NCBI GenBank assembly: GCA_047974565.1
Contig: JBKECN010000015.1
Span: 68,142-132,141, forward strand
Source: Actinomycetales bacterium
Lineage (GTDB): Bacteria > Actinomycetota > Actinomycetes > Actinomycetales > CAWJMD01
Length of the DNA stretch: 64,000 nt
Reading direction: 5' to 3'
Each line of letters starts with the position of its first letter. Positions within the stretch are counted from its first letter, which is position 1. Below are positions 22,656 to 40,313 of this stretch, in pieces. The position numbers and the translations under genes were made by a program. Below the pieces are notes generated by a model, which was not told the DNA's origin, did no database searches, and saw nothing but the letters and a program-made list of their open reading frames with translations.

Positions 22656-22760
22656 CAGGTGGATTGACCCTGCCGAGGGTCGGGCCTAGCGTTGTGGATA
22701 TCGAATTCACCTGAGGAGCGGCACCCGGATGAAGCGCATTCGGGATTCGGCCTCACTCAT

Positions 22761-22777
22761 TTCATAAAGAATATGAA
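22761..22777. promoter_or_regulatory. AT-rich inverted repeat in the divergent spacer (candidate operator or promoter element)
   Basis: TTCATA-aagaa-TATGAA, the most AT-rich spot of the spacer, about 70 nt upstream of GTG 22848. Confidence 0.3.
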
Positions 22778-22847
22778 TACCGCGGCCACAGCGATGACTT
22801 TTCAGCCTTGGCCCCTACCGATCCGATGTCGAGCCCTTGGAGGCGTC

Positions 22848-23975
22848 GTGCTCTTGTCCACCCGGTCCCAGCGAGATCACCCGGGCCGCTGCCTGCCCGG
22901 TGGGCCGTCGGGGAAGGTGTCCAGCAACGAAAGCCCGTACCCGCCCCTGGCCGCGGTGTCCGAGGCGATGACCGCCTGGAACCCGGCGCTCAACAGGTAC
23001 CCGGAGCGACACCCAGAGCGCCTGACTCTCGCCCTGGCGGCCCACCACCGGGTCAGCCCCCAGGAGATCACCGTGGGCACCGGCTCGGTGGCCGCCCTGC
23101 AGTACCTCGTCCAGGCGAGTGTGCCGGCCGGGGCCGAACTCGTCTACGGCTGGCGCAGCTATGAGACCTACCCGCGGCTGGCCCGGATCAACGCCGCCCA
23201 CGCGGTCCAGGTGCCATTGCGCCAGGAGTACCTGGATCTGGGCGCGATGGCCCGCGCGGTGACCTCACGCACGGCCGCGATCATCGTGTGCAACCCCAAC
23301 AACCCGTCCGGCACCCTGCACTCCACGGCCAGCCTGGACGACTTCCTGCGACAGGTGCCCCGGAACGTCCTGGTCATCCTCGACGAGGCGTATTGGGAGT
23401 TCACCGGAGTCCCCGAAGACGCCAGTGGGACGCGGCTGTACCGGAACCATCCCAACGTCGCCGTCGTGCGCACCTTCTCCAAGGCCTTCGGCCTGGCCGG
23501 CCTGCGGGTCGGCTATGTGATCGCCCGACCCGAACTCACCGCCTTGGCCCGGTTGTGCGCGGTCCCCTTCGGCGTCAGCGCCGGTGCCGAGGACGCCGCG
23601 CTCCGTGCACTCGAGCACCGCAGCGCGCTGCGGGAGCGGGTGGCGGGCATCGTCTCCGAACGCGAGCGGATGTGGAAGCACCTGACCGGCAACGGTTTCC
23701 ACGTCCCGCCGAGCAGATCGAACTTCCTGTGGCTGACCGGCCTCGCCGATCAACCCGGCCTCGTCAGTGCCTGCGCCGATGCCGGAATCACCGTGCGCGA
23801 CTTCCCGGGCGAAGGAGTCCGGGTCACCGTCGCCACCCCCGGTGTCAACGACCTCGTGTGCGCCATCGCCAGCCGGTTCGCTCCGGCTGACCCCGACCAC
23901 CGATCAGCGGCCGGCACCACCTGCAGAACCCGACCACGCGCCACGGCGCCCCTGCGGAGAGGACACCCGACATGA
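22848..23975 (+). CDS. Class-II (HisC-like) aromatic/histidinol-phosphate aminotransferase
   Basis: Track ORF 22692..23975. GC3 rises only after about 22845. GTG 22848 has GGAGG 4 nt upstream. Motifs SSNESPYPP, NPNNPSG, RTFSKAFGLAGLRVGY (PLP Lys). Confidence 0.85.
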   Translation: MLLSTRSQRDHPGRCLPGGPSGKVSSNESPYPPLAAVSEAMTAWNPALNRYPERHPERLTLALAAHHRVSPQEITVGTGSVAALQYLVQASVPAGAELVYGWRSYETYPRLARINAAHAVQVPLRQEYLDLGAMARAVTSRTAAIIVCNPNNPSGTLHSTASLDDFLRQVPRNVLVILDEAYWEFTGVPEDASGTRLYRNHPNVAVVRTFSKAFGLAGLRVGYVIARPELTALARLCAVPFGVSAGAEDAALRALEHRSALRERVAGIVSERERMWKHLTGNGFHVPPSRSNFLWLTGLADQPGLVSACADAGITVRDFPGEGVRVTVATPGVNDLVCAIASRFAPADPDHRSAAGTTCRTRPRATAPLRRGHPT

Positions 23976-26584
23976 CACACCTGGCAATCCTGGAGTCCAA
24001 CACCTCCGGGTCCGGCTTCGACACGATTCGCGCGGCCAAGCGGCTCGGCTGCCGGGTCACCTTCTTCACCTCCGGGCTGGACCGGTACCACGCCGCCCCC
24101 GGCGGACGCGCCTGCCTGGACGAGTGCGTTGACGAGATCGTGCTCTGCCCCACCCACGACCGGGTTGCCCTGACCCAGGCAGTCCGGGACGCGCATCGCA
24201 CCGATCCGTTCGACGGCTTCTGCTCGGTCGCCGAGTACGAGGTGGTGGACGCGGCCGCGATCGCCGAAGAACTCGGGCTGGCCTCCCCCGGCTCGACCGC
24301 AGTGGCCACGGCCCGCAACAAGATCCGGATGCGCCGCGTCTGCTCGGCCGCCGGCGTACCCACACCCCGCTTCGCTGCCGTGGCAGGTGTCGACCAGGTG
24401 GCCGAGGCAGTGGCGCACACCGGTCTGCCGTGCGTGGTCAAGCCCGCCGACGAGACCGCCAGCGCGCAGGTACGCCGCTGTGACACCGTCGACCAGGTCC
24501 ACGAGCATGTCGCCCGGGTGCTGAGCCAACCCCGCAACATCCGGGGACAGCGCCGCCACCCGGAGGTCCTCATCGAGGAGTTCCTGCCCGGCTTCGAGGT
24601 GAGCGTCGAGGTGCTGGTCACCGCCGACGGCGCCCGGGTGCTGGGTGTCACCGACAAGTGGGTGAGCGGCCACGGCAGCTTCGTCGAGCTCGGCCACACC
24701 TTCCCCAGCCAACTGCCGCCGGACGAGACCGCAGCTTGCGCCGCAGTCGCTGTCGACGCCGTGCAGGCGATCGGCCTGCAACTGGGACTGCATCACGTCG
24801 AGGTCCGCCAAAGCCGTTCCGGCCCCTGCCTTGTCGAGGTCAACCCGCGTCCGGCGGGCGACCGGATCCACGACCTGGTGGATCTCGCCCTTGGTGGCTT
24901 CTGCCTGGAGTTCGTGGTGCGGCAGAGCCTGGGGGAACCGGTCGAGCTCGACACCCCCGTGGTGGCGCGGCGCGCAGCCGCCATCCGGTACCTGATCAGC
25001 GCACCGGGAACCGTGACCGGGGTGCACGGCCTGGAGACCGCCGCGACCCTGCCCGGTGTGCAGGCCGCCGTTGCCGGGGTTCGCCCGGGCGACCAGGTGC
25101 AGCCGCTGAGCCGCAACGAGGACCGCACCGGCTACGTGCTGGCCACCGGAGCCGACGCCTTCACCGCCTCCCGGTGGGCCGAAGCCGCCGCGCTGCAGAT
25201 CGACATCCGCACCCAGGATGCCTCCGCAGAGCCGTCCGAACCACGTCAGGCGCATCACCAGTGCGGAGGTCCCGGCACCGCCTCAGTGCCCGCCACCAGG
25301 CAGTCGACCGGCCAGGCACCGGACTCGGCAGGCGTGCTCGTCATGGTGATGCCCTACCGGGCGTTCGTCGACAAGGCCACCGCCGCCGGTTATCGGGTGC
25401 ACGCCCTCTGGGACACCGCCGTCGCCGAACGGCTCTATCACCAGGACGCCGGGCGGTACCTCGACGAACTCGGCCAGGTCGCCGAGAGCCTGCAGTTCAC
25501 CGACTTCGACGACGAGGACGCCTACCAGGGCGCCCTGGACGAACTGGTGCTTCGCCACCGCCCAGACCGCCTCCTGCACTTCGGGTCCGAGGAGTCGATG
25601 CCGGTCGCCTACCGGGTGGCCCACCGTCATGGCCTGGAGTCCAACCCTCCCGAGGCGATCGCCTGCCTGAACGACAAGGCGGTCATGCGGCGGGCGCTCG
25701 CCGAGGCCGGGGTATCCCCGGTGCGAGCGGTGCTCGTCGACTCACCAGCGGACCTGGCCCACGTGCTCGCCGACACGACGTTGCCGGTCGTGGTCAAGCC
25801 GACCGGACTCTCCGGAAGCCGAGCAGTGCAGCGCATCGACGACCGGAGTCAGCTCCCCGGCTACCTCGACTCGCTGGCGCACTATGACTACACCGGGCCG
25901 TTGCTGGTGGAGGAGTACCTCGACGGGCCCGAGTTCAGCGTGGAGACGGTGAGCATCAACGGCCTGGCACATGTGGTCGGTGTGACCCGAAAGTCGGTCG
26001 GGCCGGCACCACTGTTCGTCGAGACCGGCCACGTGCACCCGGCCCCCGAGTCCGAGGCGGCGTTGGTTGCGGCCGAAGCGGTTCGGCTGCTCGAGGTGGC
26101 CGGCTACCAGTGGGGTCCCGCCCATACCGAGGTCCGGCTCACCCGCCACGGTCCGCGGATCATCGAGTCGCAGGCCCGCCTCGGCGGCGATCGGATCCCC
26201 CGGCTGGTGCACCTGGCCACCGGCATCGACCTCGAACGTGAGGTGACCTGCACCCTGTCCGGCAGCTGCGTCGGCCTTGTCCCGCAGCACCGGCGGGTCG
26301 CCGCCATCGACTATCTGGAACTACCGGTCGGAGTGGTTCTGGCGATCGACGGCCTCGCCGCGGTCCGCGAACTGGCCTACGTGGACGAACTGAAGGTGCC
26401 CTGGTCCGTCGGCGACCGGATCACCCCAGTGCTGGACACCTGGTCCCGGCACGGTCACGTGATCGTCAGCGCCGACGACCACGACACGCTGCAGGTGCGC
26501 CGCGATCAGGTCCGCGAGGCGATCCTCACCTGCTTCACCATCGACACCCAGGGCCAGGACGACGACTGGCGGGCCGCCTCATGA
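23972..26584 (+). CDS. Fused double ATP-grasp ligase (two complete ATP-grasp modules in one 870-aa protein)
   Basis: Module 1: ARNKIRMRRVCSAAGVPTPRF...LPCVVKPADETAS...EEFLPGFEVSVE...HHVEVR. Module 2: LNDKAVMRRALAEAGVSPV...LPVVVKPTGLSGS...EEYLDGPEFSVE...AHTEVRL. ATGA overlaps at both ends. Confidence 0.85.
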   Translation: MTHLAILESNTSGSGFDTIRAAKRLGCRVTFFTSGLDRYHAAPGGRACLDECVDEIVLCPTHDRVALTQAVRDAHRTDPFDGFCSVAEYEVVDAAAIAEELGLASPGSTAVATARNKIRMRRVCSAAGVPTPRFAAVAGVDQVAEAVAHTGLPCVVKPADETASAQVRRCDTVDQVHEHVARVLSQPRNIRGQRRHPEVLIEEFLPGFEVSVEVLVTADGARVLGVTDKWVSGHGSFVELGHTFPSQLPPDETAACAAVAVDAVQAIGLQLGLHHVEVRQSRSGPCLVEVNPRPAGDRIHDLVDLALGGFCLEFVVRQSLGEPVELDTPVVARRAAAIRYLISAPGTVTGVHGLETAATLPGVQAAVAGVRPGDQVQPLSRNEDRTGYVLATGADAFTASRWAEAAALQIDIRTQDASAEPSEPRQAHHQCGGPGTASVPATRQSTGQAPDSAGVLVMVMPYRAFVDKATAAGYRVHALWDTAVAERLYHQDAGRYLDELGQVAESLQFTDFDDEDAYQGALDELVLRHRPDRLLHFGSEESMPVAYRVAHRHGLESNPPEAIACLNDKAVMRRALAEAGVSPVRAVLVDSPADLAHVLADTTLPVVVKPTGLSGSRAVQRIDDRSQLPGYLDSLAHYDYTGPLLVEEYLDGPEFSVETVSINGLAHVVGVTRKSVGPAPLFVETGHVHPAPESEAALVAAEAVRLLEVAGYQWGPAHTEVRLTRHGPRIIESQARLGGDRIPRLVHLATGIDLEREVTCTLSGSCVGLVPQHRRVAAIDYLELPVGVVLAIDGLAAVRELAYVDELKVPWSVGDRITPVLDTWSRHGHVIVSADDHDTLQVRRDQVREAILTCFTIDTQGQDDDWRAAS

Positions 26585-28482
26585 GTACCACCCGCGCCGT
26601 GGAATCCGTTGTGACACCGGCCGAACCCTTACCCGGCCCGATCCGGCTCCGAATCGGGGTCAACTTCGTCCAGCGTCTGGTCGACTCGATGACCTTGGCG
26701 TTCATGGCCATTCACCTGGCCGGCCTATTCGGCGTCGCGGTGGCCGGGTTGATCACCACCGCTGTCATGGTGGTGGCCACCGTCGGCACCGTGGTCGGCG
26801 GCTCCGCAGCCCAGCGCTGGGGTAGGCGTCGCCCGTTGCTGGCCGCCGAAGCCCTGGTGGCCGTGTCCTTCCTGGCCATGTCCTTCGCCGACGCCAGCCG
26901 GCACGGGGCCCTGGTGCTGGCAGTCGGCTATGCCGCGAGCAAGTTCGGCGCCGGCTTGGCGGTCCCGGCCAACGAGGCGATGCTGGTCGACCTCAGCACC
27001 CCGCAGAATCGCACCCGGATGTACACGATCAACTACTGGGCGATCAACCTGGCGATCGCGATCGGGGCACTGGCCGGTGCCTACCTGTTCGGCCTGCACT
27101 TCCAGTGGGTGCTGGCCGGCGCGGCCCTGCTGATGGGCCTGGTCTTGTGCACCACCCTGATCTTCATCCCCGAGACCGCGCCGACCGGTACGTCAGCCGA
27201 CACCCCCGGGCGACCCCGCGCGTCCTACCGACGGGCGCTGGCGAACCGGCCCTTCATCTACCTCGCGCTCGCCGCGACCCTGCTGATGACGGTGGAGTTC
27301 CAACTCGTCAACTGGATCGCGGTGCACCTGGCCCAAGACTTCGGCCCGCAGAACCTCATCGCACTCGGCTCCCGGACGGTGACCGTGGACGGGGTGGAAC
27401 TGCTCGGCGTGCTGCGCGCGGAGAACACCGTCCTCGTCGTGGTGGGAGCCTTCGTGGTGGGCAGGCTGCTCGCCCGAGTGCCGCTGGGGGTGCGGATGAT
27501 CACCGGTGCAACCCTCTTCGTGGCCGGCTATGTGGGCTTGGCCCTGGGCGGCTCGATCTGGTTCCTGATCGGGGCCGTCGTCGTCTTCACGATCGGCGAA
27601 CTGACCGAGGCGCCCAGCCGCCAGGTACTGCTGGCCGAGCTCGTGCCCGAAGACGACCGGCCGCGTCACCTCGCGGTGTACGCGCTGCACATCCGGATCG
27701 CCCTGGTCCTTGCCGGGCTGAGCCTGACCGCCGGCGCCTTCGTGGGGCCACGGGTGATGGCCGCGGGGTTCGCCCTGCTCGGGGCGGCCGTGCTGCTGCT
27801 CTACCGGGCCGTGCTGTCCGGTAGAAACCGCCGCAGCCCGGGCCGGCCCCGGCACCGGGCACACCGTCGGACGCGGGTGTCCGGTTCTGTCGACGCGACG
27901 CGACGCGGTAGCACCGAACCCGCCGATCGCGTCGATCCCGCACCCAACGGCTCACGCCCGGAGGACGCCCACCGAGCCGGCGACCGCGTGAGCACCGCGG
28001 GAGGACAGCAGCAAGACGGTGTGGAACGCGCCGGTGCCGGCGAGCACGCCGCGTCGCCGGAGCACCGTTCAGGGAGTCCGGCTCCCAGCGCGCCGGCAGC
28101 GAATACTGCTCCCGCGCAGACCGTCTCGATCGAGATTCATCGACCGGGCGACAATGAGCTGGCCGAACTGCGCAGCATCCTGGACGGCATCGACGACTCG
28201 CTGATGCTGACGCTGGACGCGCGAATCCGCTGTTGTGTGCAGATCGCCTCGGTGAAATCCAGGTACGGCATCGCCATGATGCAGCCACACCGAATCGGTT
28301 TCGTCCACCGCCGAGCGGACGACTTCGCCGGCAACCATGACGTGGATGCTCGCTTCCTGCATCGCCTCTACGACCTCCTCATCGCCGAGACCTGCCGGGT
28401 GGAGGACGAGTTGATGTCCACCACCAACCCGGTCACACCCCCTCGCGTCCCCTCGTCCAGAGAACCGGTGAGCACCCCATGA
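26581..28482 (+). CDS. MFS transporter fused, via a ~110-aa Arg/Pro/Ala-rich linker, to a C-terminal AroQ-type chorismate-mutase-like domain
   Basis: Residues 1-412 hold about 12 hydrophobic helices. Residues ~525-612 read ELAELRSILDGIDDSLMLTLDARIRCCVQIASVKSRYGIAMMQPHRIGFVHRR...FLHRLYDLLIAETCRVE. There is no stop between the two parts. Confidence 0.8.
   Translation: MSTTRAVESVVTPAEPLPGPIRLRIGVNFVQRLVDSMTLAFMAIHLAGLFGVAVAGLITTAVMVVATVGTVVGGSAAQRWGRRRPLLAAEALVAVSFLAMSFADASRHGALVLAVGYAASKFGAGLAVPANEAMLVDLSTPQNRTRMYTINYWAINLAIAIGALAGAYLFGLHFQWVLAGAALLMGLVLCTTLIFIPETAPTGTSADTPGRPRASYRRALANRPFIYLALAATLLMTVEFQLVNWIAVHLAQDFGPQNLIALGSRTVTVDGVELLGVLRAENTVLVVVGAFVVGRLLARVPLGVRMITGATLFVAGYVGLALGGSIWFLIGAVVVFTIGELTEAPSRQVLLAELVPEDDRPRHLAVYALHIRIALVLAGLSLTAGAFVGPRVMAAGFALLGAAVLLLYRAVLSGRNRRSPGRPRHRAHRRTRVSGSVDATRRGSTEPADRVDPAPNGSRPEDAHRAGDRVSTAGGQQQDGVERAGAGEHAASPEHRSGSPAPSAPAANTAPAQTVSIEIHRPGDNELAELRSILDGIDDSLMLTLDARIRCCVQIASVKSRYGIAMMQPHRIGFVHRRADDFAGNHDVDARFLHRLYDLLIAETCRVEDELMSTTNPVTPPRVPSSREPVSTP
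28153..28416 (+). other. AroQ chorismate-mutase-like domain (PapB-like candidate: 4-amino-4-deoxychorismate mutase)
   Basis: Helical CM_2 pattern L..LR..LD.ID..L..LL..R......I...K. The only in-frame alternative start nearby is GTG 28021. Confidence 0.65.
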
Positions 28483-30605
28483 ACATCCTGCTGATCGACA
28501 ACTTCGACTCCTTCACCTACAACCTCAGCCAGTACCTCGCCGAGGTGAGCGGACAGGTCCCGACCGTGGTCACCAACACCACCCCGTTCGGCGACCTGGA
28601 CTGGCAACGGTTCGACGCCGTCGTCATCTCACCTGGACCTGGAAGGCCGGACCGGGCAGTCGATTTCGGGATCAGTGCCAGGGTTCTTCGGGAGACCGAG
28701 CTACCGGTGCTGGGAGTGTGCCTGGGGCACCAGGGCCTGGGCCACGTCTTCGGGGCGACGGTTCGGCATGCTCCCGAGCCGGTGCACGGGCGCAGTTGGG
28801 ACGTGCGTCACGACGGTCGAGAACTCTTCGCCGGCCTGCCCGACCCGCTGCAGGTCATCCGATACCACTCCCTGGCACTGACCGACCTGCCACCGGAGTT
28901 GGAGGTCACCGCCTGGACCCCGGAGGGAGTGGTGATGGGCATCCGGCACACCGAGCGGCCGATGTGGGGTGTGCAGTTCCATCCCGAGTCGATCGGCAGC
29001 GACGGTGGCCACCGGTTGCTGGGGAACTTCCTCGACCTCGCCACTGCTGCGGCTCACACAGATCGACCGCCCCGCGGGCGGGCGATCGACCTGGACCGTC
29101 GCTACCAGGCCCGGGTGCGAATCCTGCACCGCGACCTGGATTCGGAGACCGTCTTCAGCACGCTCTTCGCCGATCACGATCGCTCGTTCTGGCTGGACAG
29201 CAGCGCCGTCGAGCCGGGGGTGTCCCGGTTCTCGTTCATGGGCGCCCCGGACGGTCCGCTCGCCGAGACCGTCGAGTACGACGTGACCAACCGGCAGGTG
29301 AGCCTGACCCGAGCAGGCGCACCCGAGAGCGGCCCCGATTCGAGCGAGATCTTCGAGGTCGAGTCGGTCTTCGACTATCTCGACCGGCAACTGCGCTCCC
29401 GGGTGATCAGCGGCACCGACCGGGAACTGCCCTTCGAGTTCTGCGGCGGCTACGTGGGCTATCTCGGCTATGAGCTCAAGGCCGAGACCACCGGGCGCGC
29501 CGCCCACCGCAGCCCCACCCCTGACGCCTGCCTGATGTTCGTCGACAGATTCCTCGCCTTCGACCACGAAGAGCGGCTCGTCTACCTGGTGGCCTTGGAA
29601 CAAGCCGGTCACGCCGACGAGGTGGAACGCTGGTTCGAGAACACCATGCACCGGTTGCAACGGCTCCCCGGCCGCGCCGAGCCGTCTGGGCAACCAGGTC
29701 ACGACGTGCGCCTGCACGGAATGGACACCCCGGATCTGGCACTGGCCCCGCGCCACGACGAGGACGCCTACCTGGACCGGGTGGACGAATGCCTCGAGGA
29801 GATCGCCGATGGGGAGTCCTACGAGATCTGCCTCACCAACAGCGTTCAGGCACCCCCGGTGGAGTCGCCCTACCGCACCTACCAACAGCTCCGGACGATC
29901 GCTCCGGTGCCCTATGCGGCGTACCTGGCGACCCCCCACGTCCAGGTGCTCAGTGCCTCGCCCGAACGATTTCTGCGGGTCGACTCCACCGGTATCGTGG
30001 AGTCCAAGCCGATCAAGGGCACCCGGCCCCGGGGTGAGACGCCCCGAGAGGATCTCGACCTTCGGGTCGACCTGGCAGCCAACCCCAAGGACCGGGCCGA
30101 GAACCTGATGATCGTCGACCTGCTACGCAACGACCTCAACGTCGTCTGCGAACCGGGCTCGGTACACGTGCCCACACTCTTCGACGTGGAGACCTACGCC
30201 ACTGTGCACCAACTGGTCTCGACGATTCGCGGACGGCTGCGGCCGGAGGAGTCCGCTGTGTCCTGCGTGCGGGCCGCCTTCCCCGGCGGATCGATGACCG
30301 GAGCACCGAAGGTGCGTTCCATGGAGATCATCGATCGCCTGGAAGGCGGGCCTCGCGGGGTGTACTCCGGCGCCCTGGGCTGGTTCTCGCTCACCGGGGC
30401 CGCCGACCTCAACATCGTCATCCGGACCCTGGTGGTCACGCCTACCGAAACCACCTTCGGGGTCGGCGGAGCCATCATCGCCCTGTCCGACCCGCGCGAC
30501 GAACTGCAGGAGACAGTGGTGAAATCGCGTTCGGTGGTCAGCGCCATGGCCGCCACCGACGATGCCGGCATCTACACCGGCACCGGCCTGAGGTTGGCGT
30601 CATGA
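28479..30605 (+). CDS. pabAB: Fused PabA-PabB aminodeoxychorismate synthase (PapA/CmlB-like)
   Basis: N-terminal GATase1 (ILLIDNFDSFTYNL, GVCLGHQ, FHPES). C-terminal chorismate-binding domain (PIKGTRPRG, FPGGSMTGAPK, GVYSGALGW). Confidence 0.9.
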   Translation: MNILLIDNFDSFTYNLSQYLAEVSGQVPTVVTNTTPFGDLDWQRFDAVVISPGPGRPDRAVDFGISARVLRETELPVLGVCLGHQGLGHVFGATVRHAPEPVHGRSWDVRHDGRELFAGLPDPLQVIRYHSLALTDLPPELEVTAWTPEGVVMGIRHTERPMWGVQFHPESIGSDGGHRLLGNFLDLATAAAHTDRPPRGRAIDLDRRYQARVRILHRDLDSETVFSTLFADHDRSFWLDSSAVEPGVSRFSFMGAPDGPLAETVEYDVTNRQVSLTRAGAPESGPDSSEIFEVESVFDYLDRQLRSRVISGTDRELPFEFCGGYVGYLGYELKAETTGRAAHRSPTPDACLMFVDRFLAFDHEERLVYLVALEQAGHADEVERWFENTMHRLQRLPGRAEPSGQPGHDVRLHGMDTPDLALAPRHDEDAYLDRVDECLEEIADGESYEICLTNSVQAPPVESPYRTYQQLRTIAPVPYAAYLATPHVQVLSASPERFLRVDSTGIVESKPIKGTRPRGETPREDLDLRVDLAANPKDRAENLMIVDLLRNDLNVVCEPGSVHVPTLFDVETYATVHQLVSTIRGRLRPEESAVSCVRAAFPGGSMTGAPKVRSMEIIDRLEGGPRGVYSGALGWFSLTGAADLNIVIRTLVVTPTETTFGVGGAIIALSDPRDELQETVVKSRSVVSAMAATDDAGIYTGTGLRLAS

Positions 30606-31531
30606 GTGACTGGGCGGCAAGCGCCCGGCACGCCGTGGTGGTCGGCGCCGGAGCCGTCGGCGCTCTGTTCGCCCACGCGCTGGCCGGTGATGGTGTGCAG
30701 GTGACGATGCTCGATCGCACTGCCCATCCGTCGGGTCCCTTCCCGGTGATCGAATGCGATGCGACCTCGTTGACGGTTCGCGCGATCGCCCACCTGGATC
30801 GGGCAGACATCGTGGTGATGTCACTGCCGGAGAAGGTTTCGATCGCAGCCGTGAGCATCATCGCCTCCGCGGTCCGTCCCGATGCGCTCATCGTGGATAC
30901 CTCGTCCGTCAAGACGGGATTCGCCGACGAGGCCCGTCGGCTCCCGCCGGGGAGCGCCGAGATTGTCGGGGTGAACCCGATGTTCGCCCCGTCCCTGGGC
31001 TTCCAGGGTCGCCCGGTCGCTGTCGTGAGCATCCGGCCAGGCCCGCGGGGTACCGGTTTCACCGACCGGCTGCGCAGCTGGGGGAGTCAGGTCGTCGAGC
31101 TCACCGCCCAGGAACACGACGCTCTGACCGCCCAGACCCAGGCCCTGACGCATCTGAGCGTGCTCGCCTATGCGCTCACCCTGGCCCGGGCCGGCACGTC
31201 CGTCGGCGACCTGGTGGAAAGCGCCCCGCCGCCCTGCCGGAGCCTGCTCGCGCTGGCGGCACGCATCCTGGGCGGCAGCCCGGAGGTGTACTGGGACATC
31301 CAGATCCAGAATCCGGGTGCGGACGAACTCCGCCAAGGCCTCGCCGATTCGCTCGCCGAACTCTCGAAAATCATCGCCAACGATGACTTCTCGGCATTCG
31401 CTGACCTGCGAGCCGAGCTCATCGGCTACTTGGAACCGGAACTGGACACCCTCTCCGACGACTGTGCCCAGATGTTCACCGCCCAGATGTCCTCTGCCCA
31501 GCCGGTGCCCGGAGTCGCGGATCCTCACTGA
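30602..31531 (+). CDS. Prephenate/arogenate-dehydrogenase-family enzyme (PapC-like candidate)
   Basis: Rossmann VVVGAGAVGALFA, then VDTSSVK...GVNPMFAP...QEHDALTAQTQALTH typical of the TyrA family. ATGA overlap with pabAB. Confidence 0.8.
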   Translation: MSDWAASARHAVVVGAGAVGALFAHALAGDGVQVTMLDRTAHPSGPFPVIECDATSLTVRAIAHLDRADIVVMSLPEKVSIAAVSIIASAVRPDALIVDTSSVKTGFADEARRLPPGSAEIVGVNPMFAPSLGFQGRPVAVVSIRPGPRGTGFTDRLRSWGSQVVELTAQEHDALTAQTQALTHLSVLAYALTLARAGTSVGDLVESAPPPCRSLLALAARILGGSPEVYWDIQIQNPGADELRQGLADSLAELSKIIANDDFSAFADLRAELIGYLEPELDTLSDDCAQMFTAQMSSAQPVPGVADPH

Positions 31532-31657
31532 ACAGGCACCGCCAACGGCCAGCTCCCAGCAAAAAATGTCCATGCAACCGAAAGACTCGACCAGGCCGAG
31601 ACCTGACCTCCGTCATACCCAAGAAGCAAATCCGTCAGACCCACGAAAGGCATTGCC

Positions 31658-33340
31658 ATGCAGACCTTCACCACCACTGCCAGCAGTAGCGTCCTGGACG
31701 TCGAGTCCCGGAACCTGCTTGCCCTGGACGACAGTGTCGGCGGCGGAAGCATCGTCGCCTCCGCCCTCGCCTACAGCACCGACCCGACCACGCATTTCCT
31801 GCACAGTGCAACCCCCGTCGACCTGCCGGACGGGCGACGCTGCAGCGATCTGAGCCTGCATGATCTGGACCAGGCCACTCAGAGCTGGTCGGCCTGGTAC
31901 CTCGACCGGGGCGTGCGACCCCGAGACCGGGTGGCGGTCTTCATCGCCGACTCGTTCGCCTACTCCATCCACTTCTACGCGCTGGCCCAGATCGGGGCGA
32001 TCGCGGTGCTGATCAACAGCAACGCCTCCGCGCAGGTGGCTGGCTCGCTGCTCGAGCAGACCGAACCGGTGGGCCTGTACGCCGACCCCGAGCACCTGGC
32101 CCGGCTCGCCGAGGTGCCTGGTTCGCTGTGGGTGGTCACGTCCGAGCAGGTTCGCGCGCCCGCGCCGGCCACCCTGGCGGACGAGCACCGGTACAAGCAC
32201 GTGGGCGAGGACCCCGTCGTCATCCTGCATTCCTCCGGTACCACCGGACGACCCAAGCCGACGATCCACACCCATGCCTCGATCGTGGCCGGGCCCAAGT
32301 TCCGGCTGGTGGATCACCGCGAGGATCCCCACGCCACAACGATGACCGCACTACCGCAGTCACATCTGGGGTGCATTGCCTTCACCACCTACAGCGTCCT
32401 GGCCGGGGCGCCCCTGGTGGCCCTTCGGGACTGCCCCGGCCCCGTGCTGGCCGAATCGATCGACCGGTACCGTCCGACCGCGGTGATGTCCTTCGCCCAC
32501 GCGTACAGCGAACTCGCCGCCACCACCATCGAGCCTGGCACCCTCGACTCGGTGGGCACCTGGATCTCCATCGGCGACGCGGTGCACGAGGCGCACATCC
32601 GCCGGGTCCTGGACATGCGCAGCCCGTCGCTGCCGGCGGCGACCTTCCTGGACCGGCTGGGTACCACCGAGCTCGGCTGGGGCGTGCTGTTGCAGACGCA
32701 CACCACCGGTGCCGGGGTGGCCGCCCGCAGCGCCGGCCGTCCGGTCGGGGTGGCCGAGGTGCAGGTGCTGCGCGCCGACGGCACGCCGGCCGCACCCCAT
32801 GAGCCGGGCTTCCTCGGTGCGCGCGGCCCGGCGATCACGCCCGGCTACTGGGCCAACTCAGCGGTCACCTACTCCTCGCGGCTGGCCGGCTACTGGCTGA
32901 CCGGCGACGTGGCGGTGTGCGACGAGGGCGGCAACTACTACCTGATCGACCGCGTGGTGGATGCCATCGACACCCGCGACGCAGTGGGCTACTCCGTGGC
33001 GATGGAGGAGGCCTTGCTCGGCGGACTACCCGAGATCGAGGAGGTTGCCGTGGTGGCCGGCCGATACGACTCGCGGACCGTGGCAGTGGCCATGATCAAG
33101 CCGAGCCCCGGCGAGCACGACCCCGACCTGCTGGTGCGTCGGGTGAACGAGGTGCTCGTGCGCAACGCTCACCCGCCGATCGCCTTCGTCGAACTCATCG
33201 ACGCGCACGACGATCTGCCCACCGGGGTTACCGGCAAGGTGCTGAAAAGGCAACTGCGTGAGCGGTATGCGACGCTGCCGGTGCTGCCCGACGCCCGGCT
33301 GATCGCGGCCGATCCGCTCCTGGTCCCGATGGCCGGGTGA
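31658..33340 (+). CDS. Adenylate-forming enzyme (acyl/aryl-CoA ligase-like, ANL superfamily)
   Basis: 560 aa. ILHSSGTTGRPKP, GTTELG, WLTGDVAVCDEGGNYYLIDRVVD, TGKVLKRQLRE. Preceded by a 126-bp lower-GC spacer. Confidence 0.85.
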   Translation: MQTFTTTASSSVLDVESRNLLALDDSVGGGSIVASALAYSTDPTTHFLHSATPVDLPDGRRCSDLSLHDLDQATQSWSAWYLDRGVRPRDRVAVFIADSFAYSIHFYALAQIGAIAVLINSNASAQVAGSLLEQTEPVGLYADPEHLARLAEVPGSLWVVTSEQVRAPAPATLADEHRYKHVGEDPVVILHSSGTTGRPKPTIHTHASIVAGPKFRLVDHREDPHATTMTALPQSHLGCIAFTTYSVLAGAPLVALRDCPGPVLAESIDRYRPTAVMSFAHAYSELAATTIEPGTLDSVGTWISIGDAVHEAHIRRVLDMRSPSLPAATFLDRLGTTELGWGVLLQTHTTGAGVAARSAGRPVGVAEVQVLRADGTPAAPHEPGFLGARGPAITPGYWANSAVTYSSRLAGYWLTGDVAVCDEGGNYYLIDRVVDAIDTRDAVGYSVAMEEALLGGLPEIEEVAVVAGRYDSRTVAVAMIKPSPGEHDPDLLVRRVNEVLVRNAHPPIAFVELIDAHDDLPTGVTGKVLKRQLRERYATLPVLPDARLIAADPLLVPMAG

Positions 33341-33465
33341 GCTGGGCCGCCGGTCGAGCCGAGACGCGGGAAACCCGGCGCTGCTGCCCACGAAACGCGC
33401 CCGGTACGGGATGCACACTCACGAGTGTCCATTTCCCCGGTCTTGTCCGGAGATGCCTGGGCTGA
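33337..33465 (+). CDS. Candidate 42-aa Cys-containing small ORF (speculative RiPP-type precursor)
   Basis: Not in the track (<60 aa). GTG 33337 forms a GTGA overlap with the ligase stop. Translation is VSWAAGRAETRETRRCCPRNAPGTGCTLTSVHFPGLVRRCLG. GC3 is only about 29/42 with several rare codons, so coding status is doubtful. Confidence 0.15.
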   Translation: MSWAAGRAETRETRRCCPRNAPGTGCTLTSVHFPGLVRRCLG

Positions 33466-33500
33466 CAGACTCCCCGGGTCAGCGTCGGGGAGTCTGTCAG
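33462..33500 (+). promoter_or_regulatory. Perfect 15-bp-stem hairpin directly upstream of the YcaO gene
   Basis: CTGACAGACTCCCCG-ggtcagcgt-CGGGGAGTCTGTCAG. The 3' arm ends 10 nt before ATG 33511 and overlaps the first bases of the AGGAG SD (33499-33503). Confidence 0.6.
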
Positions 33501-33510
33501 GAGCCATCGC

Positions 33511-36012
33511 ATGCCGGTCAGGGACGCCGATCCACCCGTGGGGCTTCGCCCCGGGGTGACCTTCTCCACCCTGGCGGACGGGCGACGCGCGTTGCACGCA
33601 GAGGGCCTGATGCTCAACCTGCCCGACCAGGCGGCGAGCCTCGCCCTGCCACTGCTGGCCGGTCATCTCAGCCCCACGCAGATCGCCCAGCGGTTGGACG
33701 GTCTGGTCGGCGGTGCCGAGGCGGCTGCCCTCATCGCCGACCTCTGGCAACGAGGACTCCTCGTCCAGGGCGTGCCGCAGCCACCGGGGCGAGTCTTCGT
33801 GGACGACTCCGCCCTGCCGTCACCGCCAGCCCCCGCACGGGCCCGGTACAAGGAGCAGGTTGGCAACAGTCAGGAGGCTGTAAAACGTTCCGGCAGAACC
33901 GTCCTCGACGGCGTCCCGCTCGAGGGCAGCGCCGGTACCGGCGAGACCGAGCAAGCCGGCGAGAGTGGGGGAGAGCCCGCGGCGTGGGTGGCCCGGCTAA
34001 TCGCCGACTGCGGGCTACACCCCAGCGGGCCCGCCGAGGCCGACGCGGCGATCGTGCTGTGTGCGGACTACCTGCAGACCGCGCTGATCGAGGCCGCCGA
34101 GCGACTCCGCAGCCAGGCAACCGCCTGGCTCCCGGTGCGGGTGAGCGCCACCGCGGTCTGGCTCGGGCCGTGGGTCGAGGAGAACCTGTGTTGGGACTGC
34201 GTCCGGGCCCGGCTGCGCGCGCACGATCCACGCCCCGACAGCGTCGTCGACGCCTCCGCCGAGAACGGACACCACGTCGGCACCCATGACCAGCGGACCT
34301 CGCTCGACCACGGCGGCGCATGGCAGCTCACCGACCAAGCCGGGGATGAGCGGACCGTCGATCTTCGTCACGTCGATGAACAAGGGGGCCACGACCTCGC
34401 GTCGCCCGACCTGACGCTGGTCGGGATGGGTGCCGCCGCGCGCCTGACTCGCGACCGCCTGACTCGCGATCGACTGGCCCAGCACACCACGACGGCATCC
34501 GGGCGAGCCGCGCCACCAGCCGGGGACCTCGATCCGGGGCAGCGCCCGGAGCCGGGACGGGGTCGGCTGCTCTGCATCGACGCCGACACGATGAGCCAGA
34601 GCGAGCATGTCGTGCTGGCCAGGCCCGAGTGCCCACGATGCGGCACGGGCGAAGCGATGGCCGCCAGGATGGACACTCGTCCCGCCCTGGCCCCGCAGGA
34701 GACCGCAGAACGTGGCGCCACCGGCCACCGGGCCCGCAACGCCGAGGACACCTGGCGGCGGTACCGCCACCTCGTCTCGCCGGTGAGCGGGCCGGTGGCC
34801 CGGGTGGACCCCGACCGGCGCCTACCGCCGGGCCTGCACGCCTACCTGGCCGGCAGCAACCTCGCCGGCGGACTGGTGCCGGGCCGGCGCAGCGTCCTGC
34901 GCTGGGATTGCGGAGGCAAGGGGGCGACCGCTGCGGCAGCCCGAACCAGTGCTCTGTGCGAGGCGCTGGAGCGGACCAGCAGCAGCTGGCACGGCGACGA
35001 GCGCCGCATTCTCGCCCGGTACGCCGATCTGGAGGAGGCTATCCCGGCCCGGGACCTGCAGCTCTTCGGCGACGAACAGTTCGCCGGGCGCACCGGGTGG
35101 AACAGCCGTCACTCGGCCTTTCAGCGTGTCCCCGAACCTGTCTCGGACGACGACGAACTCGAGTGGACCCCCGCGTGGCCGCTGGACGGCGGACCCAGGA
35201 CCCTCATCCCGACCGGCCTGTGCCTGCTCGGCGGCCCGGACGCCCACCGGCTCGCGGGAGACTCCAACGGATGCGCCGCCGGTAGTACCCTCACCGACGC
35301 CGTGCTGCAGGGGCTACTCGAGGTCATCGAACGCGACGCCGTGGGCATCTGGTGGTACAACCGGTTGCCGCAGCCCGACATTGACCTGGACGGCCTGAGG
35401 GAGCCCTATCTGGACGACGTCCGTCAGGTCTACCACGATCTCGGGCGCGACCTGTGGGCGCTGGAGGTGACCAGTGACCTCGGAATCCCCGTCGTCGCAG
35501 CGGTTTCCCGGCTGCGGGACGCAGCGCGGGAGAGCATCATCTTCGGCTTCGGCGCCCATCTCGACCCGCGGGTCGCCGTCCTACGCGCGGTCCTGGAGAT
35601 GAACCAGTTCCTGGCCACCGCGCTAACCGTCGACCCCGAGCAGTGGTGGGATCAGGATCCGGACTTCGCCCGCTGGATGACTACCGCGACCCTGGACGCC
35701 CATCCCTACCTGGCCCCACACCCGCAGGTGCCCCGGGTGCCCGACCAGATCCCCGAGCCGAGGCAGCTGGGCTTGCTGCCCGCGGTGGACGCCGTCCGGG
35801 ACCGGCTCGAGATCGCCGGATTACGCGCCTATCTCGTCGATCTGACCCGGGCAGACCTTGGCTTGCCGGTGGTCAAGGTGCTCGTTCCCGGAGCGCGACA
35901 CTGCTGGCTGCGCACTGCGCCCGGCCGGCTGTTCGAGGTGCCGGTGCGTCTGGGTCGGCTGAAGCACCAACACGGCGTGGCCGACCTCAACCCCGATCCG
36001 ATCTTCCTGTGA
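33511..36012 (+). CDS. Fused E1-like (C-protein, with N-terminal RRE-like winged helix) / YcaO (D-protein) azoline-forming cyclodehydratase
   Basis: 833 aa. E1-like half has the CWDC (227-230) and CPRC (374-377) zinc pair and WLPVRVSATAVWLGPW. YcaO half has RYRHLVSPVSGPV, SNGCAAGSTLTDAVLQGLLEVIERDAVGIWWYN and a Pro-containing C-terminus NPDPIFL. Confidence 0.9.
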   Translation: MPVRDADPPVGLRPGVTFSTLADGRRALHAEGLMLNLPDQAASLALPLLAGHLSPTQIAQRLDGLVGGAEAAALIADLWQRGLLVQGVPQPPGRVFVDDSALPSPPAPARARYKEQVGNSQEAVKRSGRTVLDGVPLEGSAGTGETEQAGESGGEPAAWVARLIADCGLHPSGPAEADAAIVLCADYLQTALIEAAERLRSQATAWLPVRVSATAVWLGPWVEENLCWDCVRARLRAHDPRPDSVVDASAENGHHVGTHDQRTSLDHGGAWQLTDQAGDERTVDLRHVDEQGGHDLASPDLTLVGMGAAARLTRDRLTRDRLAQHTTTASGRAAPPAGDLDPGQRPEPGRGRLLCIDADTMSQSEHVVLARPECPRCGTGEAMAARMDTRPALAPQETAERGATGHRARNAEDTWRRYRHLVSPVSGPVARVDPDRRLPPGLHAYLAGSNLAGGLVPGRRSVLRWDCGGKGATAAAARTSALCEALERTSSSWHGDERRILARYADLEEAIPARDLQLFGDEQFAGRTGWNSRHSAFQRVPEPVSDDDELEWTPAWPLDGGPRTLIPTGLCLLGGPDAHRLAGDSNGCAAGSTLTDAVLQGLLEVIERDAVGIWWYNRLPQPDIDLDGLREPYLDDVRQVYHDLGRDLWALEVTSDLGIPVVAAVSRLRDAARESIIFGFGAHLDPRVAVLRAVLEMNQFLATALTVDPEQWWDQDPDFARWMTTATLDAHPYLAPHPQVPRVPDQIPEPRQLGLLPAVDAVRDRLEIAGLRAYLVDLTRADLGLPVVKVLVPGARHCWLRTAPGRLFEVPVRLGRLKHQHGVADLNPDPIFL

Positions 36013-38015
36013 CCGCGACCTCTGGTAGCTCGGGCATCTCGGGGACCGCGGGTATCTCGGAGACGAGTCCTTCGGGCGCGGCCCCGGACGCCCGGCGACG
36101 GGAGTGGTTGCGGCGTCGGACGTTGCAGGGCTGGGCCCTTCAGGTGGCAGCCGCCGCCTACCTGCTCGTCGACCTGCTGCGCATCGTCGACCGGCACCTC
36201 GGCTGGGTCCCGACTCTGGTCGCCGCCGCCCTGCTGAGCCTGATGTGGTGGCTCTTCGCGGTCCGCCAGACCCGCCATGCGTTCCGGCCGATGACCCCGG
36301 TGGCCTGGGCGACCCTGCTGGCACAGGCTCTCGTCACGCTGGCCCCGACGGCCGTCTTCGGCCTCGACTGGCTGGGCGTCTGGGCACTGCTCGGCGGTGC
36401 GCTGCTGACCCTTACCCCGTTCGCGGTCGGGCTGACCGGCGCGCTCGCGGTGGCCGGCGGAGCGGGTGCGCTGATCTGGCAGGAAGTGGGTAGCCCGGCG
36501 GCCGCCGTCCTGGGTGGGGTGGGGGTACTCGCGGCGTCCGCGGCCTTCTTCGGCCTCGTGCTGCTCGCCTCGGCCAGCGACGAATTGGCCCGTGCGCAGG
36601 GCGAACTCGTCCAGGCGGCAGTGCTTCGCGAGCGCGCGCGCTTCCACGAGCGGATCGCCAGCACGCTCAAGGCCAATCTGCGCCAGATCCGCGAACTGGC
36701 CCACCGCCCGCTTGGGAGTCAGCTCCCGGCTGCGGCCGGGACCCAGGGGCAAGACGACGCCGGAGAAGGGCTCGCCCAGGCCAGCCGGGCCATCTCGGCC
36801 ATCGCCCGGTCGTCCCTGCTGGACAGCCGGAAGCTGGCCCATGCGCTGCCATCACAAGATCTCGACCCGGCTCTCTCGCCGACCCTGACCGGTGCGCGTT
36901 TCGCCGCGGTGCCCGGGTGGGCACTGCGCGGGCATCTGGCCGGCGCCATCCTGTCGGTGGTGCTGGTGCTGCGGGGCCTGGACGTGCTGCTGGCGGCCGC
37001 GGCACCGCTGCGAACATCGCCGATGACGCCCGGGTTCCTCCTCGGTGCAGCGCTGCTGGCGGCCTGCATCGGCCTGCAACTGGTGGTGCTTGCCCAAGCC
37101 GCTCGGGAGGTGAGCCAGCGGATGGCGGCCTCGCTCTGGGGCGCTCAGCTGCTGGTGACCGTGGGGCTGACGGTGTGTCTACCGCCCAACGGCGCGGCCA
37201 TGCTGGGCCTGCCCGCCGCCTCGGCGGTGTTGCTCTTCGGGATCGTCCCCGGGGGGTGGATGGCGTTGGCTCTCCTGCTGGTGGCGGGGGCGCTGCTCGC
37301 CGATCCGACCTCCCTGACGGGGCTCGGCTACGGCTTCCTCACCAGCTTGAACACCTTCGTCTTCGCCTACGCCCTCACCGAACTGAGCGTCCAGCTATCC
37401 CGCGTGCTGGCGGCGCAGGCCGAGATGGTCACCCTCGCGGTGATCGGCGAGAAGGGCCGGCAGGGCCGGGACCTGCACGACATCCTCGGGCCGACCATGT
37501 CTGCGCTGGCGTTGAAGTCGTCCCTGGCCGCCAAGCTGGTCGACCGCGATCCCGACCGCGCCCGAGCTGAGCTCGGGGAGATCGACGAGGTGGCCCGGCG
37601 TGCCATCGCCGAACTCGACCAGGTCCGCGACGCAGCCTTCGCCACCTCGGTGGATCGTGAAGTGGAAGCCTGCCGGTCGCTGCTCGCCGTCGCCGGGATC
37701 TCGGTGTCGCTGACCAGGAGCGGACCGGCCCCGCCTCAGGAGCACGTGGTCCCGCTCGCCGGATGCCTGCGCGAAGGGGCGAACAACGTCCTGCGGCACT
37801 CCGACGCCACCCGATGCACCATTCGGCTCACCTGCACCCCGGCCGTCTCGACTCTGCGGATAGCCAATGACGGGCTGCGCAATGGGCAGGCGGACTCACC
37901 GGGACGGGGACTGTCGAACCTGGCGGAACGGGCCGGTGACCTGGGTGGGCAGGCGCGGGCCTGGACAGCCGACGGCTGGCACTTCCTGGAGTTGACCCTG
38001 CCCGTGCACAGGTGA
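36009..38015 (+). CDS. Polytopic HisKA_3-type sensor histidine kinase with duplicated TM-DHp module
   Basis: 3' part of track ORF 35643..38015. GTG 36009 forms a GTGA overlap with the YcaO stop. First H-box-like is RERARFHERIASTL, second is GRDLHDILGPTMSAL. A single HATPase_c (NNVLRHS...GRGLSNLAERA). Confidence 0.85.
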   Translation: MTATSGSSGISGTAGISETSPSGAAPDARRREWLRRRTLQGWALQVAAAAYLLVDLLRIVDRHLGWVPTLVAAALLSLMWWLFAVRQTRHAFRPMTPVAWATLLAQALVTLAPTAVFGLDWLGVWALLGGALLTLTPFAVGLTGALAVAGGAGALIWQEVGSPAAAVLGGVGVLAASAAFFGLVLLASASDELARAQGELVQAAVLRERARFHERIASTLKANLRQIRELAHRPLGSQLPAAAGTQGQDDAGEGLAQASRAISAIARSSLLDSRKLAHALPSQDLDPALSPTLTGARFAAVPGWALRGHLAGAILSVVLVLRGLDVLLAAAAPLRTSPMTPGFLLGAALLAACIGLQLVVLAQAAREVSQRMAASLWGAQLLVTVGLTVCLPPNGAAMLGLPAASAVLLFGIVPGGWMALALLLVAGALLADPTSLTGLGYGFLTSLNTFVFAYALTELSVQLSRVLAAQAEMVTLAVIGEKGRQGRDLHDILGPTMSALALKSSLAAKLVDRDPDRARAELGEIDEVARRAIAELDQVRDAAFATSVDREVEACRSLLAVAGISVSLTRSGPAPPQEHVVPLAGCLREGANNVLRHSDATRCTIRLTCTPAVSTLRIANDGLRNGQADSPGRGLSNLAERAGDLGGQARAWTADGWHFLELTLPVHR

Positions 38016-38859: not shown

Positions 38860-39018
38860 TCAGATCAGTCCGGGCTCGACGGCGACCCGGGTGAAGCACC
38901 AGGGAATGACGACCTCGTCCTGGTCGGCGTCGTCGAACCGAGACCAGATGACACTCGGCTTCTCCGCAGCCTTCTCGGCGAGAGCGGCCAGGGTGGCGAA
39001 GGGGTTCTTGATGTCCAT
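38860..39018 (-). CDS. 52-aa small protein of unknown function
   Basis: Not in the track (<60 aa). ATG 39018 is preceded by GGAGAAAAGAC. GC3 is about 46/52. Translation is MDIKNPFATLAALAEKAAEKPSVIWSRFDDADQDEVVIPWCFTRVAVEPGLI. Confidence 0.5.
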   Translation of the reverse strand: MDIKNPFATLAALAEKAAEKPSVIWSRFDDADQDEVVIPWCFTRVAVEPGLI

Positions 39019-39706
39019 GTCTTTTCTCCAGACGTGAGGTTCTCGGTGGTCTTTACGTCATGAAGTCTTGCCGGTTTCGGGGGCGTGGCGCCAGAGTTCA
39101 GACCCATGAAGAATTCCTGATTCCGGTGTGCCCTAGCCACGGGACGCGGTGGTCGACGTCGTGACCATCGGGAACCGGCTTGAGCCCCACCGGGTGCCAT
39201 CGCCGCTGGCGGCACCGTGGGATTCGGCTGTAAATCATTAACGCACAATGAGTTTCGACTATGTGAGGAGATGCATAGTCATCGATGTCCGGTCCCTGGG
39301 GCATCGCCCCTCGCACATCGCGGTGGCCACCGGCCCGCAGGACGCCCGGTGTCTGCGCGGACCGCTGTCCAGCTGCGTGAGCGGTTGGTCGGGGATTGTG
39401 GATTGGCTCAGGAGACAGCCGTGCCGAAACGTGGCGAGCAACAGGCCGGTGTCGCGTGGGTATTGCTTCCTGCGCATTGAGAACTCGGTGCAGGACGAGG
39501 ACCACGAATCTGGACGCCACAATCCAGACCCGCGGATCGGAATCCAATGGCGTGGGGGCGGGAGGCGACCGGGTATTGAGCGACGCTCTGGCCGATCCTG
39601 CATCCTGGGGCCGCCACGACCATGACCCGGCACGTCAACGCCGTCCAGCAGGGGTGGCCGATGGCCGCGAAGGATTCCGGCGTGCCGGTCGACTCCCTGC
39701 GAGCTT

Positions 39707-39752
39707 GAGGCTCAGAAGTGACGGGTGAGGCTCAGAAGTGACGGGTGAGGCG
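39707..39752. repeat. 2.3 tandem copies of a 20-bp unit (TGAGGCTCAGAAGTGACGGG) spanning the stop codon of the DUF1992 gene
   Basis: Identical units at 39707-39726 and 39727-39746, partial third copy to 39752. The gene's stop (39732-39734) sits in copy 2. Confidence 0.9.
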
Positions 39753-40313
39753 ACGCCACCAGGACTCGGGTTGCGCCGCGTCGCTGGCGGGCGCCGACCG
39801 GTCGGTGGGGGCGGGGGTCGGCTCCGGGGGTGGGGCGCCCCGTCGCCCGTCGGCTTCGTCTGGGGCGGCGATGTCCTGCCGGATCTCGACCTCGGTGACC
39901 TGCGCCGGCTCGGGCTCCGGCTGCGGCCTGTACTCGGCGCTCCATCGCGCGGTGAGTTCATCCACGTCCACCACGTGGGCGATCACGGGGTGGCCTGCGC
40001 CGGTAGCGGGTCGGGCGATCTCCCGGCGGACCGCGGCGTTGTACGCCTCGAGCACCTCACGTACCGCGGTCTCGTCCGGCAGCCCGGCCAGCGAGTCGGG
40101 AAAACCGTCCGCTTGCTTGCGCAGGGCCAGCATTGGGGGCAGGGCCTCGGCCAGACTCAATCTCTCGCGTTCGGCGAACCGTCGGATCCACCAGTTGGGA
40201 TCATCGGCATCGGACAGGTCGAGCGGCTTTCCGGCACCTGGCAGATTGTCGAACTCACCCCGCGCCTGGGCATCGGAGATCTCCCGCTCCACATTGGGCC
40301 AACTCATGTGCAC
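39732..40313 (-). CDS. DUF1992 (DnaJC28-like) domain protein
   Basis: N-terminus ISDAQARGEFDNLPGAGKPLDL...NWWIRRF is typical of DUF1992. Pro/Glu-rich tail. Confidence 0.7.
   Translation of the reverse strand: MHMSWPNVEREISDAQARGEFDNLPGAGKPLDLSDADDPNWWIRRFAERERLSLAEALPPMLALRKQADGFPDSLAGLPDETAVREVLEAYNAAVRREIARPATGAGHPVIAHVVDVDELTARWSAEYRPQPEPEPAQVTEVEIRQDIAAPDEADGRRGAPPPEPTPAPTDRSAPASDAAQPESWWRRLTRHF

Follow-up and report, generated by a model that had tools for sequence, protein, structure and literature searches.

The closest known enzymes to the one considered here are the cyanobactin heterocyclases PatD, TruD and LynD, together with MusD of the muscoride pathway (PDB entries 4BS9, 4V1T and 7U58). 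These proteins carry in a single chain the recognition element (RRE) of ribosomally synthesized and posttranslationally modified peptides (RiPPs), an E1-like domain with a zinc tetrathiolate, and a YcaO domain with a proline-containing C terminus, and the heterocyclase itself works without a dehydrogenase, so that its products are azolines. Linear azol(in)e-containing peptide (LAP)/thiazole/oxazole-modified microcin (TOMM) clusters, such as those of the microcin B17 and streptolysin S types, also combine a YcaO cyclodehydratase and an E1-like partner with a leader-bearing ribosomal peptide. In actinobacteria, the streptamidine-type clusters, with AmiD as the YcaO protein and AmiB as the E1-like protein, represent widespread YcaO RiPPs whose YcaO ends in a proline-rich C terminus; this family was found via short peptides encoded near YcaO genes, and fused YcaO proteins were excluded from that study (PMC8442711).

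The gene analyzed in this work lies at 33511-36012 (+) of a 64-kb stretch of contig JBKECN010000015.1 from an Actinomycetales bacterium; this whole stretch, with a G+C content of ~70%, is referred to below as the window. Sequence comparison and structure modeling support well the identification of its product as a complete, functional-looking three-domain heterocyclase of the PatD/TruD/LynD type. The gene heads a translationally coupled operon of three genes, encoding the heterocyclase, a sensor kinase and a response regulator, and by comparison with related loci this operon is a reduced, divergent copy of a small RiPP module widespread in actinomycetes. We estimate at about 60% the probability that the locus constitutes a RiPP heterocyclase and two-component module whose likely substrate is a 52-aa peptide encoded convergently to the operon.

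Domain architecture and coupling of the heterocyclase gene

The features of the operon and of its upstream gap are as follows.

33462..33500 (no strand assigned): 14-bp perfect inverted repeat, CTGACAGACTCCCC-N11-GGGGAGTCTGTCAG, in the 170-nt gap before the heterocyclase gene; read directly and unique in the window
33511..36012 (+): PatD/LynD-type fused heterocyclase, 833 aa; identified with Pfam and NCBIfam models, alignment and a structure model
33511-33774 (+): RRE/winged-helix domain, aa 1-88
33775..33978 (+): lineage-specific insertion 1, aa 89-156, between the RRE and E1-like domains; aligned to gaps in all 12 homologues
33979-34800 (+): E1-like domain, aa 157-430, with zinc cysteines C227, C230, C374 and C377
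34225..34557 (+): lineage-specific insertion 2, aa 239-349 (111 aa), between the two CxxC motifs; found by alignment and predicted to be disordered
34915-36012 (+): YcaO domain, aa 469-833
36009..38015 (+): tandem membrane HisKA_3 sensor kinase, 668 aa, with a 4-nt GTGA overlap with the heterocyclase stop codon
38012..38695 (+): NarL/LuxR-type response regulator, 227 aa, with a 4-nt GTGA overlap with the kinase stop codon
38681..38761 (no strand assigned): 20-nt tandem repeat TCAGGCTGGATCTGACGGGC, 4.1 copies, over the regulator stop codon and the convergent intergenic region

The window protein matched the Pfam YcaO model over aa 469-796 (E 5.9e-90) and the NCBIfam model TIGR03604 (SagD family) with 224 bits, the cutoff being 219, while TIGR03882 (TOMM leader-peptide-binding/E1-like) matched in two stretches (E 3.6e-22). 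A profile of the family gave near full-length, collinear matches to LynD, TruD and MusD (E 1e-267 to 1e-251, profile positions 10-758); its position 10 aligned to LynD residue 3, so that the N-terminal domain was covered, and it also matched MccB, in support of the E1-like domain. Searched as a single sequence, the window protein matched LynD with an E value of 3e-108, the match to LynD domain 1 being weak (6.7 bits). The AlphaFold model had a mean predicted local distance difference test score (pLDDT) of 68, with a confident YcaO domain and the E1-like domain present, and superposed on LynD with a template modeling score of 0.72 (normalized to the target). In this model aa 10-86 form strands and three helices (pLDDT 52-82), which, together with the profile alignment to LynD, points to a predicted leader-binding RRE at the N terminus.

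Motifs were read from an alignment of the window heterocyclase with 12 database homologues. Both zinc pairs, C227/C230 (CWDC) and C374/C377 (CPRC), were invariant in the 13 sequences, and so were the ATP/Mg motifs S-x3-E-x2-E-R (SALCEALER), DSNGxAAG (DSNGCAAG) and E-x2-E-R-D (EVIERD), which were aligned to LynD. The protein ends in LNPDPIFL, and its homologues end in LNPxPxF/I; a proline-containing C terminus is a mark of azoline-forming YcaOs (PMC8442711). The domain assignment made earlier from the sequence alone (the sequence-only reading), namely an N-terminal winged-helix-like region, an E1-like half with a CWDC...CPRC zinc pair and a full YcaO half with a proline-containing end, was thus confirmed throughout, whereas its proviso that the YcaO might prove inactive through loss of ATP-binding residues can be dismissed, since these motifs are intact on alignment.

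Insertion 1 is predicted to be disordered (pLDDT below 50) and keeps a coding-type G+C content at third codon positions (GC3). Insertion 2 contains a perfect 15-nt tandem duplication (34441-34469) that encodes RLTRD twice. A frameshift as the origin of the two inserts was rejected, because coding-type GC3 is kept in frame and the same 833-aa product is found in independent assemblies. For its part, the ATG at 33511, preceded by AGGAG, is preferred as the start codon because the homologues keep the strand that precedes Val16.

The sequence-only reading had also described a GTGA coupling of the heterocyclase gene to a sensor kinase. This junction was found within CTGTGACC (36007-36014), the kinase starting with GTG, and a second GTGA joins the kinase to the response regulator, whose GTG start likewise overlaps the preceding stop codon. 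The kinase consists of two units, each with membrane and dimerization and histidine phosphotransfer (DHp) parts, the first without an ATPase domain and the second complete. In Lentzea a tandem kinase is encoded after the YcaO gene, and the window kinase aligns with each of its two units; the Lentzea and Umezawaea orthologues (~780 aa) are single polypeptides in which both kinase units are complete. The repeat over the regulator stop codon varies in length between strains, and it is interrupted by 10 inserted nucleotides in one strain variant (L086).

The upstream ANL gene and the heterocyclase gene are 170 nt apart, and this gap contains the inverted repeat, whose 3' arm reaches up to or into the AGGAG ribosome-binding site of the heterocyclase gene. 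It could be a terminator of the upstream Pap/ANL operon, or else an operator or translational hairpin.

Related loci, dehydrogenases and precursors in actinomycetes

The comparison was made with 82 loci, 80 of them genomic loci with related fused YcaOs (33-48% identity) and two from exact look-ups; their hosts include Lentzea, Umezawaea, Amycolatopsis, Streptomyces and Kitasatospora, among others. When coding-like open reading frames (ORFs) within 8 kb of the YcaO gene were clustered in the 76 high-GC loci, the recurrent neighbors were a Streptomyces antibiotic regulatory protein (SARP) regulator (54 loci), a HisKA_3 kinase (52), a LuxR regulator (52) and a SagB-family dehydrogenase (TIGR03605; 40), the last mostly directly downstream of the YcaO gene where found. 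In 52 of the 76, the YcaO is accompanied by both kinase and regulator. The typical layout comprises the SARP regulator, a short precursor, the fused YcaO, an optional SagB dehydrogenase, the kinase and the regulator. A literature search found no description of a YcaO/two-component RiPP family.

Because of these conserved partners and of the tandem-kinase alignment, the heterocyclase, kinase and regulator genes are best regarded as an inherited unit that merely adjoins a nonribosomal cluster. Searches with the window proteins found PapA, PapC and ATP-grasp homologues near none of the 82 related YcaOs; ANL-superfamily genes occur near some of them, with at most 28% identity to the window ANL and in varying positions. 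The evolutionary independence of the heterocyclase module from the adjacent p-aminophenylalanine/ATP-grasp/nonribosomal peptide synthetase (NRPS) cluster is therefore well supported.

The sequence-only reading had stated that the only nitroreductase fold in the window is the Ox insert of the NRPS, and had treated the missing SagB as an oddity. The former statement holds: in tblastn searches with family SagB proteins, the only SagB/nitroreductase-like similarity in the window was an insert in the NRPS adenylation domain, at 19565-20263 (-). The latter does not. In a tblastn census of the 82 loci with the two halves of one family SagB protein, the nitroreductase domain was present in 47 and absent from 35, and the loci that lack it include the nearest relatives (L021, L009, L003, L006 and L040). 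Twelve loci, with the nearest relatives from Lentzea and Umezawaea among them, keep only the N-terminal ~220-aa SagB domain as a separate gene directly after the YcaO gene (L006, 11826-12470; L021, ~11953-12540; and 10 others), and the remaining loci have neither. This suggests that the lone, non-nitroreductase N-terminal SagB domain has a role of its own. Absence of SagB is thus a common state in the family, one that matches the azoline-only chemistry of TruD/LynD-type enzymes.

Of the 82 loci, 33 have a short ORF that closely precedes or overlaps the start of the YcaO gene (35 such ORFs altogether); in L021, from Lentzea nigeriaca, the precursor is unambiguous. The leaders of these family precursors carry L-x-I-D-E-F/L-D, are of the type L-V-I-D-E-F/L-D(-Q-W-x-N-P), and are followed by a core of 10 to 25 residues, usually with one or two cysteines; many precursors end in ...E-x-L-A-A, and their stop codons often overlap the YcaO start. 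In Streptomyces the precursors carry long NHLP-like leaders. A profile of the precursors found at least 8 further loci, not used in building it, with a similar ORF 5 to 8 kb from the YcaO gene; in those checked (L007, L022 and L037), the distant ORF is directly upstream of a regulator gene. The NCBIfam precursor models matched neither the window peptide nor any of eight family precursors, save for a weak TIGR04351 match to a Streptomyces NHLP-like precursor.

The candidate substrate and the alternatives to it

No ORF with the L-x-I-D-E-F/L-D motif was found in the 170-nt gap upstream of the heterocyclase gene, and the ORFs there are noncoding by composition. Two of them were considered as precursors and rejected: 33337-33465, with G+C contents by codon position of 0.63/0.74/0.67 (noncoding) and no family motif, and 33425-33559 (44 aa, ending in the GTGA at heterocyclase Val16), with noncoding composition and no family motif either. 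One small gene stood out on the other side of the operon.

38860..39018 (-): candidate precursor peptide, 52 aa, MDIKNPFATLAALAEKAAEKPSVIWSRFDDADQDEVVIPWCFTRVAVEPGLI; a coding signature, a ribosome-binding site and conservation between strains argue for a gene, and its role as a substrate is putative

This ORF has GGAGA 6 nt before its ATG and G+C contents by codon position of 0.62/0.43/0.87. Apart from one of 28 aa, no other intergenic ORF of 25 to 120 aa between 30 and 42 kb shows such a coding signature, and the 52-aa ORF is annotated as a gene at NCBI and in six metagenome assemblies. In a 96.8%-identical strain, it differs by 1 synonymous change in 159 nt, compared with 30 changes in 707 nt of flanking noncoding DNA (Fisher p = 0.03). 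The peptide has an amphipathic N terminus, a VIWSRFD strand and an acidic stretch, and then a lone cysteine, C41, flanked by aromatic residues in the hydrophobic C-terminal part. The spacing from FD to the cysteine is 12 residues, within the family range of ~9 to 17. In the six-frame translation of the window, this ORF was the top match of the first precursor profile. The claim of the sequence-only reading that no precursor-like ORF is listed nearby thus stands for 33337-33465 and fails for 38860-39018, which looks like a real gene; similarly, of the two tiny ORFs that it had offered as unannotated precursors, the former drops out and the latter is the best candidate, its similarity to the family being not significant.

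In one strain (L084, 1-951), an IS30-like transposase gene (HTH_38 plus rve) lies ~360 nt upstream of the 52-aa ORF, with the breakpoint at about window position 39380, and the insertion leaves the peptide gene and the two-component genes intact. The different upstream neighbor in this strain was considered as a module boundary and rejected, since it reflects merely this transposase insertion.

If the 52-aa peptide is the substrate, it would dock on the N-terminal RRE through the acidic beta-strand of its leader, and the YcaO domain would use ATP to activate the amide before the cysteine and close the thiazoline. One such ring would be formed, at Trp40-Cys41, and would remain an azoline for want of a dehydrogenase. 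The membrane kinase, of intramembrane type, and its regulator would control the module or respond to the product; a more speculative possibility is that the thiazoline-bearing peptide is itself the signal sensed by the co-conserved tandem kinase. No common regulator-binding motif was found upstream of the heterocyclase gene and of the peptide gene.

Several observations weigh against this interpretation, above all in its weak step, the identity of the substrate. The score of the candidate with the first profile was 7 bits (E 0.36), and the background in related loci is about one such match per window; a second profile, built from the "DQW" subgroup, did not rank it. A phmmer search from the 52-aa peptide found no precursor, HMMER, run exhaustively against 1.84 billion representatives, gave no matches other than eukaryotic BED-finger and BRC repeat proteins, which were taken to be chance matches, and a scan of metagenome contigs found no relative of the peptide; a word-indexed search returned only the peptide itself. 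The gene is convergent to the operon instead of upstream of it. The window module has no SARP regulator, no SagB N-domain gene and no protease or transporter gene, and the ~180 aa of disordered inserts in the E1-like region would be compatible with reduced function or decay. The enzyme shares only 47-48% identity with its nearest homologue, which leaves no orthologous locus for following small-ORF conservation, and the closest relative sought in metagenomes was 42% identical. We therefore consider the 52-aa peptide the likeliest substrate at roughly even odds.

A genuine heterocyclase/two-component unit with its precursor at another genomic site, as the sequence-only reading had also suggested, and with the 52-aa ORF as an unrelated small protein, is unlikely but has to be taken seriously. 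The candidate shows no significant similarity to family precursors, the contig extends over at least 134 kb, of which the window covers only 64 kb, and precursors 5 to 8 kb from the YcaO gene in several related loci indicate that distance is tolerated; against this, every family precursor detected lies within ~8 kb of the YcaO gene or beside the regulator, and it is exactly there that the conserved, coding-like 52-aa ORF with its precursor-like layout is found. We consider improbable that the locus is a decaying remnant that has lost precursor, SARP and dehydrogenase, with the heterocyclase left substrateless or kept only through its coupling to a useful two-component system. The genes for the upstream precursor, the SARP and the SagB N-domain that accompany the closest relatives are indeed missing from the window, the E1-like domain carries two large disordered inserts and the internal 15-nt duplication, and the ATPase domain is gone from the first kinase unit. 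However, the 833-codon ORF is intact, with normal coding composition even within the inserts, all ATP/Mg, zinc and C-terminal motifs are kept, and so are the 4-nt overlaps.

The sequence-only reading had also raised the possibility that the YcaO acts on the nonribosomal peptide made by the neighboring ligases, which would mean recruitment of the heterocyclase to form an azoline, amidine or thioamide on a leaderless p-aminophenylalanine peptide. Its gene is on the same strand as that cluster, begins 170 nt beyond the cluster's final gene and lacks a canonical upstream precursor, and the divergent arm encodes a CysK/SbnA-like enzyme and an NRPS with an Ox domain, which could oxidize an azoline. 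This is nevertheless the least supported of the rivals, and we consider it very improbable: no related locus pairs a fused YcaO with Pap or ATP-grasp genes, and the conserved partners are instead kinase, regulator, precursor and SagB; the leader-binding RRE is kept; the two clusters are set apart by a strong hairpin and a ribosome-binding site of its own for the heterocyclase gene; and a literature search found no YcaO acting outside RiPPs in Actinobacteria, in agreement with the lack of evidence for such activity as of 2021 (PMC8442711). Just as slight is the chance that the substrate is a ribosomal peptide on which the enzyme performs other YcaO chemistry, either MusD-like ATP-dependent backbone cleavage or amidine formation. 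Of the three relatives of known structure closest to the enzyme, one is MusD (7U58, "YcaO-mediated ATP-dependent peptidase activity"), and cleavage would explain why the module has no protease gene; but LynD and TruD, which are plain heterocyclases, are just as close to the enzyme, the candidate core has its cysteine in the usual position, and nothing in the sequence tells these reactions apart. Formation of a single thiazoline in the convergently encoded 52-aa peptide remains the reading that we prefer.

Neighboring cluster and comparison with known systems

Upstream of the operon lie the two arms of the p-aminophenylalanine/NRPS cluster.

12908-21850 (-): divergent arm, with two ATP-grasp ligases, a CysK/SbnA-like enzyme and an NRPS
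22692-33340 (+): p-aminophenylalanine pathway arm
31658-33340 (+): ANL enzyme, best curated match the aromatic-amine diazotase AvaA6 (344 bits over the full length; next family, 160)

The genes of the forward arm encode an aminotransferase, a double ATP-grasp L-amino-acid ligase, a fusion of a major facilitator superfamily transporter with chorismate mutase, a fused aminodeoxychorismate synthase (PabAB), a prephenate-dehydrogenase-like enzyme, which completes the p-aminophenylalanine pathway, and the ANL enzyme. The NRPS of the other arm has the layout adenylation domain (with the SagB-like Ox insert)-thiolation domain-thioesterase-tautomerase, and four ATP-grasp ligase units are present across both arms. 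No CreD/CreE-type nitrite genes were seen in the 64-kb window, and a literature search found no paper combining a diazotase with aminophenylalanine. Elsewhere in the window, a full-length bacterial serpin is encoded at 3312-4613 (-) (Pfam Serpin, E 2e-90), and a perfect 20-nt tandem repeat (2.3 copies, 39706-39751) overlaps the 3' end (39732) of a DJC28-like gene at 39732-40313 (-) and the DNA just downstream of it.

Should the 52-aa peptide be the substrate, the locus would offer little new chemistry, one thiazoline in a short peptide. More interest may attach to the p-aminophenylalanine cluster of the window, with its diazotase-like ligase. If the modified peptide is a signal, a RiPP-based sensing circuit would be common to many actinomycetes, and if the enzyme were recruited to the nonribosomal pathway, this would be an actinomycete YcaO with a substrate other than a ribosomal peptide. 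Adjacency to a nonribosomal cluster is a poor guide to function here.

Compared with PatD, TruD, LynD and MusD, the window enzyme is collinear throughout and has the same ATP/Mg motifs, and like them it has no dehydrogenase of its own. It differs from them in sequence (~28% identity), in its two disordered inserts (~180 aa) in or before the E1-like domain, in its actinomycete host, and in the translational coupling of its gene to a two-component system. The hallmarks of cyanobactin pathways, PatA/PatG-type proteases/macrocyclase or a multi-cassette PatE-like precursor, are absent from the gene map of the window; therefore, the enzyme type is common with cyanobactins, and the pathway class is not. 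With respect to LAP/TOMM clusters, the C and D components are fused here, no SagB/McbC dehydrogenase is present, and the candidate core has one cysteine instead of a Cys/Ser/Thr-rich tract. Membership in the streptamidine family was rejected since streptamidine YcaOs stand alone, without fusion; that family also has different precursors and forms amidines.

The closest counterparts are thus the 82 related loci. Compared with these, the window lacks a directly upstream L-x-I-D-E-F/L-D precursor, a SARP and a SagB N-domain gene, its first kinase unit is truncated, and its candidate precursor is convergent and not recognizably homologous. It shares with them the fused YcaO, the HisKA_3 kinase, the tandem form included, and the LuxR regulator, and dehydrogenase-less variants are common among them as well. 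Together these loci make up a large, apparently uncharacterized family of actinomycete fused PatD/LynD-like heterocyclases. A SARP and a HisKA_3/LuxR two-component system, in which the kinase is often duplicated, are the constant companions of this family, and its precursor leaders are missed by current curated models.

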